The notes beneath the pieces are model-generated. The model searched no databases and had not been told where the DNA came from. It worked only from the letters and a program-made list of their open reading frames with translations. 64,000 bases of DNA from NCBI RefSeq assembly GCF_013315695.1, contig NZ_CP054353.1; one strand, given 5' to 3'. The position numbers were made by a program, and so were the translations under genes. Each line of letters starts with the position of its first letter. Position 1 is the first letter of the stretch. Source of the DNA: Escherichia coli (lineage in GTDB: Bacteria; Pseudomonadota; Gammaproteobacteria; Enterobacterales; Enterobacteriaceae). This document shows, piece after piece, positions 32,051 through 34,121 of the stretch.

Positions 32051-32541
32051 AGATTAACCATCCATTCATTGGATTAACAAACATTCCTGGTCAAATAACC
32101 TATGAGTTCAGATTACCAAAACGGAGGGTAAAGACAAAAACAAAAGCACAAGAAATTTAAATAGATAAACAGCGACAATACATAAATGATAAATAAGTCA
32201 GCATTATCATTTTTCACCTTATTTTCATGACATTGATCACTTTGGAGTGACGAATTTGTTTAACAAATAACTCTTCGACATCAAAATTATTAATAGTTGC
32301 CATTGGAATTATTTCGATGATATATAAAAACAACTGTGATAACACCAGGGTTGACAACTATTTGCGCAATAATACCTTTCCTTCAATGATCCAGGCGTTC
32401 ACTGCCAGCAACCCATTCAGCCGCATACTGACAGTGAGAAACTGAAAGTTTAGTGCTGATCCCTGTGGCTGACGAGTCTTTCCCTTAATCGATTAACCAG
32501 ATTGATCGCCAGCCAAACAAGGGCATTAAGCAAATTTATCG

Positions 32542-33456
32542 TCACAAGCACTTTGGATTTGCCCCTATATTATCACTTAACCCATTACAAGCCCGCTGCC
32601 GCAGATATTCCCGTGGCGAGCGATAACCCAGCGCACTATGCGGATGCCATTCGTTATAATGCTCGAACGCCTCTGCAAGGTTCTTTGCTGCCGTTAACCC
32701 GTCTGGTTTGGGCATGATACTGATGTAGTCACGCTTTATCGTTTTCACGAAGCTCTCTGCTATTCCGTTACTCTCCGGACTCCGCACCGCCGTGTTCTTC
32801 GGTTCAAGTCCCAACATCCGGGCGAACTGGCGTGTTTCATTAGCCCGGTAGCATGAACCATTATCCGTCAGCCACTCCACTGGAGACGACGGAAGATCGT
32901 TGCCGAAGCGGCGTTCCACCGCTCCCAGCATGACGTCCTGTACTGTTTCACTGTTGAAGCCGCCGGTAGTGACCGCCCAGTGCAGTGCCTCACGATCACT
33001 GCAGTCCAGCGCGAACGTGACACGCAGTCTCTCTCCGTTATCACAGCAGAACTCGAACCCGTCAGAGCACCATCGCTGATTGCTTTCTTTCACGGCCACT
33101 CTGCCTGTATGTGCCCGTTTCGATGGCGGTACAGCAGGTTTTCGCTCAAGCAACAGCGCATTCTGGCGCATGATCCGGTAAACACGTTTGGCATTGATCG
33201 CAGGCATACCATCAAGTTCTGCCTGTCTGCGAAGCAGCGCCCATACCCGACGATAACCATACGTGGGCAGCTCTCCGATAACATGGTGTATACGGAGAAG
33301 CACATCCGTATCATCAGTGTGACGACTGCGGCGGCCATCCATCCAGTCATCGGTTCGTCTGAGAATGACGTGCAACTGCGCACGCGACACCCGGAGACAA
33401 CGGCTGACTAAGCTTACTCCCCATCCCCGGGCAATAAGGGCGCGTGCGCTATCCAC
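32542..33456 (-). CDS. insD: IS2 transposase OrfB (InsD; DDE integrase domain); C-terminus runs through the right inverted repeat to a stop 12 bp beyond the IS end
   Basis: 304 aa [33 protein letters not shown]... matching IS2 InsD. Confidence 0.85.
32549..32553. repeat. IS2 target-site duplication, copy 1 (CACTT)
   Basis: Identical 5-mer abuts both IS2 ends. Confidence 0.8.
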
Positions 33457-33870
33457 TTTTTTGCCCGTCCATATTCAACGGCTTCTTTGAGGAGTTCATT
33501 TTCCATCGTTTTCTTGCCGAGCAGGCGCTGGAGTTCTTTAATCTGCTTCATGGCGGCAGCAAGTTCAGAGGCAGGAACAACCTGTTCTCCGGCGGCGACA
33601 GCAGTAAGACTTCCTTCCTGGTATTGCTTACGCCAGAGAAATAACTGGCTGGCTGCTACACCATGTTGCCGGGCAACGAGGGAGACCGTCATCCCCGGTT
33701 CAAAGCTCTGCTGAACAATTGCGATCTTTTCCTGTGTGGTACGCCGTCTGCGTTTCTCCGGTCCTAAGACATCAATCATCTGCTCTCCAATGACTAGTCT
33801 AAAAACTAGTATTAAGACTATCACTTAAATAAGTGATACTGGTTGTCTGGAGATTCAGGGGGCCAGTCTA
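32554..33870 (-). mobile_element. IS2 (IS3 family) insertion sequence
   Basis: Contains insC and insD; left inverted repeat TAGACTGGCCCCCTGAATCTCCAGACAACC at 33870 (reverse); right end TGGATTTGCCCC at 32554; flanked by 5-bp direct repeats CACTT. Confidence 0.9.
33414..33779 (-). CDS. insC: IS2 transposase OrfA (InsC, helix-turn-helix)
   Basis: 121 aa from [26 protein letters not shown]. Confidence 0.85.
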
Positions 33871-33875
33871 CACTT
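33871..33875. repeat. IS2 target-site duplication, copy 2 (CACTT)
   Basis: Identical 5-mer abuts both IS2 ends. Confidence 0.8.
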
Positions 33876-34121
33876 CTCCCAGCCCGGTACTGGGTTTTGC
33901 AATAAGGATGACCAGGAGAGTGATCAGCATAAATGCAATGGAAAAGATGATATAGAGAGTGAAATAATCCAGATTATTACTATTGTTCATGCTACTAATG
34001 GCAATCCTGTCAAAACTTTCAAACAATTATAGCAAACAAAATAATGAACAATAGTAACAAGAGGCAACGAGCTAATTAGCTGTCTATAATTACACCGCAC
34101 CATGGCCTTACTGATCAATTT

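Follow-up and report, generated by a model that had tools for sequence, protein, structure and literature searches.

The window, by which we mean the whole stretch of 64,000 nucleotides of Escherichia coli DNA analyzed here, contains a single copy of the insertion sequence IS2, which occupies positions 32554-33870 and splits the gene ymgF into two fragments. The gene order on both sides of the insertion is the standard one, namely ymgD, an autotransporter gene, ymgF and pdeG. The features at the locus are as follows.

32450..32553, minus strand: 3' fragment of ymgF, residues 41-72 and the stop codon, with the duplicated AAGTG in front
32549..32553: copy of the target-site duplication beside IRR, CACTT
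32554..33870, minus strand: IS2 element, 1,317 bp, with IRL at 33870 and IRR at 32554
32554..32580, minus strand: remnant of IRR, positions 1-16 (32554-32569) fused to positions 31-41 (32570-32580)
32542..33456, minus strand: orfB frame, 304 aa as compared to 301 normally
33414..33779, minus strand: orfA (InsC / IS2 TnpA), 121 aa, same as the K-12 protein
33456..33462, minus strand: A6G window (AAAAAAG) for the programmed -1 frameshift
33829..33870, minus strand: IRL, 42 bp, complete
33868..33990, minus strand: 5' fragment of ymgF, codons 1-40 followed by TAG from the IRL terminus of IS2
33871..33875: copy of the target-site duplication beside IRL, CACTT

The element starts with TGGATTTGCC at 32554 and ends with GGCCAGTCTA at 33870. 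Alignment with IS2A of K-12 revealed 7 substitutions over 1,317 aligned bases and a gap of 14 bp, and the IS2 copy of strain AF3 is identical apart from this gap. The reference length of IS2 is 1,331 bp; the window copy measures 1,317 bp, and the 14 bp that are absent belong to IRR. By these alignments the element is clearly derived from IS2 but less than full length. The length of its IRL is that described for IS2, i.e. 42 bp (PMC3299598).

OrfA matches the Pfam family HTH_Tnp_1 and the NCBIfam model of the IS2 repressor TnpA (276 bits, above the cut-off). The orfA and orfB frames overlap in the -1 frame at the A6G slippery site, whose function in IS2 frameshifting is described in PMC3299598, and the conceptual fusion protein OrfAB has a length of 412 aa as compared to 409 aa normally. 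For OrfB, matches were found to the Pfam families rve (1.1e-17), which represents a DDE integrase-type catalytic core, rve_3 (1.8e-18) and HTH_21. The NCBIfam model IS2 TnpB scores 711 bits on OrfB, above its cut-off, with an alignment that covers residues 1-296 only. In this IS2 copy, orfA, the frameshift window and the catalytic core are intact.

The element belongs to a subtype of IS2 in which the centre of a palindrome beside IRL is flipped. Window positions 33820-33837 (IS2 positions 34-51) read CACTTATTTAAGTG here as compared to CACTTAAATAAGTG in K-12 IS2A, and the published OrfA docking motif TAAATAA is thereby reversed; A32G is also present in this subtype. A search with window positions 33811-33870 returned 536 records at an identity of at least 99%. 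Thus, the subtype is a minority form, yet not rare.

Among the neighbouring genes, an intact autotransporter of 882 aa (29402-32050, minus strand), named 'ECIAI39_1904 family autotransporter adhesin' by PGAP, is encoded where K-12 has the ycgH pseudogene. For pdeG (34122-35687, minus strand) the mechanically called open reading frame comprises 521 aa as compared to 507 aa in RefSeq annotations of the relatives, a difference caused only by an upstream in-frame ATG.

Target site and fate of ymgF

On the minus strand, ymgF begins with the ATG at 33990 and its 40 codons correspond to MNNSNNLDYFTLYIIFSIAFMLITLLVILIAKPSTGLGEV. Codon 40 (GTG) lies inside the repeat copy at 33871-33875, and the TAG that follows is the outermost base triplet of IS2 at its left end. 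The reading frame of ymgF is therefore not intact in the window but broken by IS2 after codon 40, so that 40 aa are encoded. When the element and one copy of CACTT are removed by joining 32553 to 33876, an open reading frame of 72 aa is restored, which aligns with the NCBIfam equivalog model of YmgF, a cell division-associated protein (NF041587), over positions 1-72 of 72 with 141 bits at a cut-off of 100. The family assignment is based on this model instead of Pfam, where a local scan of the reconstructed YmgF gave no match, though precomputed annotations give PF28058. Hydropathy analysis of YmgF indicates two hydrophobic segments with the insertion point in the loop between them, and the 40-aa fragment retains the first segment only.

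The empty site was then reconstructed as a sequence of 125 nt with one copy of CACTT. Of the 5,426 complete E. coli genomes, 5,034 contain it without interruption, some of the matches reaching 100% identity, and the genomes with the uninterrupted site have one copy of CACTT only. An uninterrupted ymgF with two tandem copies of CACTT was not seen in close relatives. When aligned to the uninterrupted ymgF of strain 201609 (NZ_CP048107.1), the two flanks from the window overlapped by exactly 5 bases. Thus, the CACTT pair is a true target-site duplication of one ancestral copy. Neither mismatched 5-mers at the IS2 ends nor non-syntenic flanks were observed at the window locus. The entry of IS2 into ymgF was almost certainly a simple transposition with a genuine 5-bp duplication and not a rearrangement. 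A previous sequence-only reading of this DNA had described an IS2 that splits ymgF with CACTT at 32549-32553 and 33871-33875, and each of its coordinates proved correct, as did the predicted truncated YmgF of 40 aa, in agreement with the translation from the ATG at 33990. It had also proposed a simple transposition rather than a rearrangement and had named an empty-site comparison as the test that could refute this; the comparison confirmed the single ancestral CACTT. The 14-bp gap in IRR had gone unnoticed in that reading.

With respect to the host, the loss of ymgF through IS2 is probably near-neutral. In the part of PMC4446571 that cites Karimova 2009, YmgF is described as localized to the septum, and deletion of ymgF as being without a growth or division phenotype. 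A hybrid outward promoter, composed of a -35 element in IRR and a -10 element in the flanking DNA and driving either what is left of ymgF or, 504 bp downstream, the autotransporter gene, was considered and rejected. A spacer of 17 nt from the IRR -35 leads to AGTGCT in the flank, a 2-of-6 match, and in a consensus promoter scan for an outward promoter the sites were no more numerous than in shuffled sequence.

Distribution of the insertion among E. coli genomes

The exact IS2/ymgF junction was found in 4 of the 5,426 complete E. coli genomes, i.e. in MSB1_4I (NZ_LR898874.1), AF3 (NZ_OZ547117.1), AF14 (NZ_OZ546925.1) and NZ_OZ546911.1. AF3 and AF14 are from blood cultures in the UK, and MSB1_4I is from a rectal swab in Australia. 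Position and orientation of IS2 in ymgF are the same in all tested carriers. Over 49.8 kb the window differs by 3 SNPs from MSB1_4I and by 7 SNPs from AF3, the 14-bp gap being the sole indel. The window, MSB1_4I, AF3, AF14 and NZ_OZ546911.1 are clonal relatives, and the insertion is common to them by descent.

Since the junction is shared with near-identical relatives, ymgF::IS2 is an inherited lineage marker and not a recent event at the level of the isolate. The sequence-only reading had suggested a recent insertion; this holds at the level of the lineage but not for the isolate, given that the junction is present in 4 of the 5,426 complete genomes and was inherited. An intact duplication cannot date an insertion, so that 'recent' does not follow from the duplication alone. 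The ymgF::IS2 allele is already known and annotated in public genomes. The RefSeq (PGAP) annotations of the carrier genomes, AF3 and MSB1_4I among them, contain two YmgF pseudogene fragments flanking an IS2 transposase, and the index of a large public assembly collection lists the 40-aa YmgF product in 501 blocks.

Further differences among these genomes were noted. In umuC (window 19186-20454, minus strand) an internal stop at codon 371 is common to the window and MSB1_4I and absent in AF3, and the source of the window is therefore closest to MSB1_4I. The three substitutions that separate the window from MSB1_4I within the 49.8 kb are located at 16233 (fadR) and 26546 (minD), both synonymous, and at 38888 in the interval from bluF to bluR. 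The window base at 16233 is unlike that of both MSB1_4I and AF3. In AF14, ymgF::IS2 is accompanied by the absence of 1,893 bp, equivalent to window 30418-32310, which takes the 5' part and the upstream region of the 882-aa autotransporter gene; the PGAP label is ycgH fragment, and NZ_OZ546911.1 has the same ycgH annotation in the match table. The left flank of AF14 had been considered as a second genetic background, which was rejected, as it represents the same lineage with this additional 1,893-bp deletion. Strain 201609 carries an independent IS2 with its own 5-bp duplication in the autotransporter gene, at positions equivalent to window 31592-31596, and its pdeG is interrupted by IS1. The ymgF region may be a recurrent IS target, with genome counts that include clonal relatives.

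The right end of the IS2 copy

Across the locus, the sole difference between the window and AF3 or MSB1_4I is the 14-bp gap. Comparison with AF3, MSB1_4I and K-12 IS2A places the deletion of TTTCCAGACATCTG between 32569 and 32570, where TGGATTTGCCCCTATA abuts TTATCACTTAA in the window. The missing bases are IRR positions 17-30, counted from the outer end, and the breakpoints share a TT microhomology. Those relatives whose sequence covers both junctions all have a wild-type IRR. Thus, the deletion is later than the insertion and belongs to the window's own branch. Its junction is absent from 9,589 IS2 right-end matches in the 5,426 E. coli genomes and from 1,485 IS2 right-end matches in plasmids (Escherichia, Shigella, Salmonella, Klebsiella and others), and an exact-match scan of metagenome contigs did not find it either. 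Since 14 is not divisible by three, orfB is frameshifted in its final codons, which changes RCLEI* to IGANPKCL* and moves the stop codon to 32542-32544, outside the element and in the ymgF remnant. OrfB with the altered tail is not on record in the exact-protein index. We rejected the idea that the deleted IS2 represents a propagating subtype, as matches were lacking in E. coli genomes, plasmids, metagenome contigs and the exact-protein index. Likewise rejected was one record (L010) considered as a variant IS2, since what sets it apart is a run of 1,240 Ns at a scaffold gap. The 14-bp deletion, known from one sequence, is very probably real.

Lewis et al. 2012 (PMC3299598) describe a two-step transposition of IS2 in which step I relies on IRR as the sole donor end. 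It is from this donor end that the figure-of-eight and the minicircle are formed. The domains of the 41-bp IRR are a cleavage domain and a protein-binding domain with the elements B, II, C and III (PMC3299598). Mutations in element B of IRR abolish minicircle formation, as do single-base deletions at positions 14, 26 or 29 of IRL, not of IRR (PMC3299598). For step II the junction promoter Pjunc is essential, with a mandatory 17-bp spacer (PMC3299598).

In the window, IRR is not intact. It has lost all of the conserved element II (TCCAGACA) and the larger part of element C, and element III has moved 14 bp, or about 1.3 helical turns, toward the cleavage domain and now adjoins element B. A minicircle junction reconstructed from the wild type consists of TGGAAA, 17 nt and TAGACT, and fits the 17-bp spacer rule. 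From this rule (PMC3299598) we infer that TGGAAA is the -35 hexamer of Pjunc, which would be lost in the window copy; the reconstructed junction of the deleted copy has TGATAA in its place. With element II and the putative Pjunc -35 hexamer lost at the only donor end, the window IS2 can most likely neither be bound correctly nor undergo cleavage, circularization or re-insertion. If the deletion is real, our analysis thus makes it highly probable that this IS2 copy is immobile. The change of the OrfAB tail alone is probably tolerated, since OrfAB with a C-terminal GFP fusion is fully active in vivo (PMC3219604). OrfA, as well as OrfAB with the altered tail of 8 residues, may still be produced from the element.

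An error at the level of sequencing, assembly or consensus, or an edit of the sequence, could also account for the 14-bp gap, in which case the isolate would carry an ordinary IS2 of 1,331 bp with full mobility. In favour of such an error, the gap has no counterpart among the IS2 right-end matches from E. coli (9,589) and from plasmids (1,485), the altered OrfB tail matches no recorded protein, and the assembly of multi-copy IS elements is difficult. However, a clean loss of 14 bp in non-repetitive sequence is atypical of homopolymer or polishing errors, and the distance of 3 SNPs to the nearest relative, with no other indel in 49.8 kb, points to a distinct isolate that was assembled with high quality. 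Nor would it be biologically remarkable for a non-essential repeat to carry a private deletion. We therefore consider an artefact unlikely. If the gap were one, the locus would be just the known ymgF::IS2 allele. The probability is smaller still that a real deletion does no harm and that IS2 transposes with what remains of IRR. The 11-bp cleavage domain and positions 12-16, with most of element B, are intact and element III is kept, single-base deletions at IRL positions 13, 19, 21 and 36 had no effect (PMC3299598), and the activity of the OrfAB-GFP fusion (PMC3219604) indicates that the altered tail need not inactivate the enzyme. On the other hand, element II is missing altogether and element C for the most part, element III is displaced by 14 bp from the cleavage site, the putative -35 hexamer of the essential Pjunc is lost, and single-base deletions at IRL positions 26 and 29 sufficed to abolish minicircles (PMC3299598). 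A second copy with the deletion junction was not encountered in the E. coli, plasmid or metagenome collections searched.

As regards the insertion itself, recombination or rearrangement between IS2 copies, or independent insertions at a hot spot, might have produced the same arrangement in place of one inherited transposition. IS2 insertions are indeed frequent around the locus: 62 genomes contain a site that accounts for 80% or more of the query, mostly through flank matches joined to a nearby IS2, and the independent IS2 of strain 201609 is about 960 bp away. Against this, the two flanks adjoin each other directly in the empty site and the duplication amounts to exactly 5 bp, the order ymgD, autotransporter, ymgF and pdeG is standard on both sides, and genomes with the exact junction hardly differ over 50 kb and have IS2 at the same position and in the same orientation. 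We regard such an origin as extremely improbable.

The explanation that we prefer, transposition into ymgF followed by inheritance and a later deletion in IRR that left an immobile copy, appears probable as a whole. IS2, a member of the IS3 family that transposes by a copy-out/paste-in mechanism, inserted by simple transposition at codon 40 of ymgF, thereby duplicating CACTT and reducing a 72-aa membrane protein with two segments to a 40-aa fragment with one. This event took place in an ancestor of a well-sampled E. coli lineage, which includes MSB1_4I, AF3, AF14 and others, and the allele, with an expected nearly neutral loss of ymgF, was then inherited. Later, and in the source of the window only, IRR positions 17-30 were very probably deleted, with a TT microhomology at the breakpoints, which most likely left a fixed, fossilized IS2 copy. 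The sequence comparisons directly show the insertion, the duplication, the truncation, the common descent and a deletion that is unique to the window, while immobility, loss of Pjunc and neutrality are inferences. For the outcome in full, a real deletion in IRR and a permanently anchored IS2 that still expresses OrfA and the tail-modified OrfAB, we see a somewhat better than even chance.

Comparison with known IS2 copies and end mutants

The significance of the locus is small, as insertions of IS2 are commonplace in E. coli, cells grown in the laboratory do not need ymgF, and the allele is already annotated. Nevertheless, one lineage can be recognized cleanly by its ymgF::IS2 junction, and the window isolate can be told apart from all sequenced relatives by the 14-bp deletion in IRR. 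The deletion can be viewed as a small natural experiment on the donor end of IS2, in which transposition should be abolished if the published domain model is correct. If the explanation holds, the locus would provide a natural example of an IS element immobilized by the loss of its donor-end binding site, and a stable lineage marker. The anchored copy could then also act in trans, as a source of repressor or transposase for the other IS2 copies of the genome.

Among known copies, IS2A of K-12 MG1655 (NC_000913.3, 381260-382590) has an identical OrfA and shares with the window copy the A6G window and the rve DDE core, as well as the 42-bp IRL and a 5-bp target duplication. Unlike K-12 IS2A, the window copy lacks IRR positions 17-30, its OrfB and OrfAB end with IGANPKCL instead of RCLEI at a stop codon in the flanking DNA, and it is of the subtype with the flipped palindrome beside IRL. 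The alleles of MSB1_4I, AF3, AF14 and NZ_OZ546911.1 agree exactly with that of the window in insertion point, orientation, duplication and flanks, but contain a full IS2 of 1,331 bp with an intact IRR. In having an altered protein-binding domain in an inverted repeat, the window copy is similar to the IS2 end mutants engineered by Lewis and co-workers (PMC3299598), which lose minicircle formation. Whereas these laboratory mutants carry designed point, triplet or single-base deletion mutations on plasmids, mostly in IRL, the variant in the window is chromosomal and would have arisen spontaneously by loss of 14 bp from IRR.
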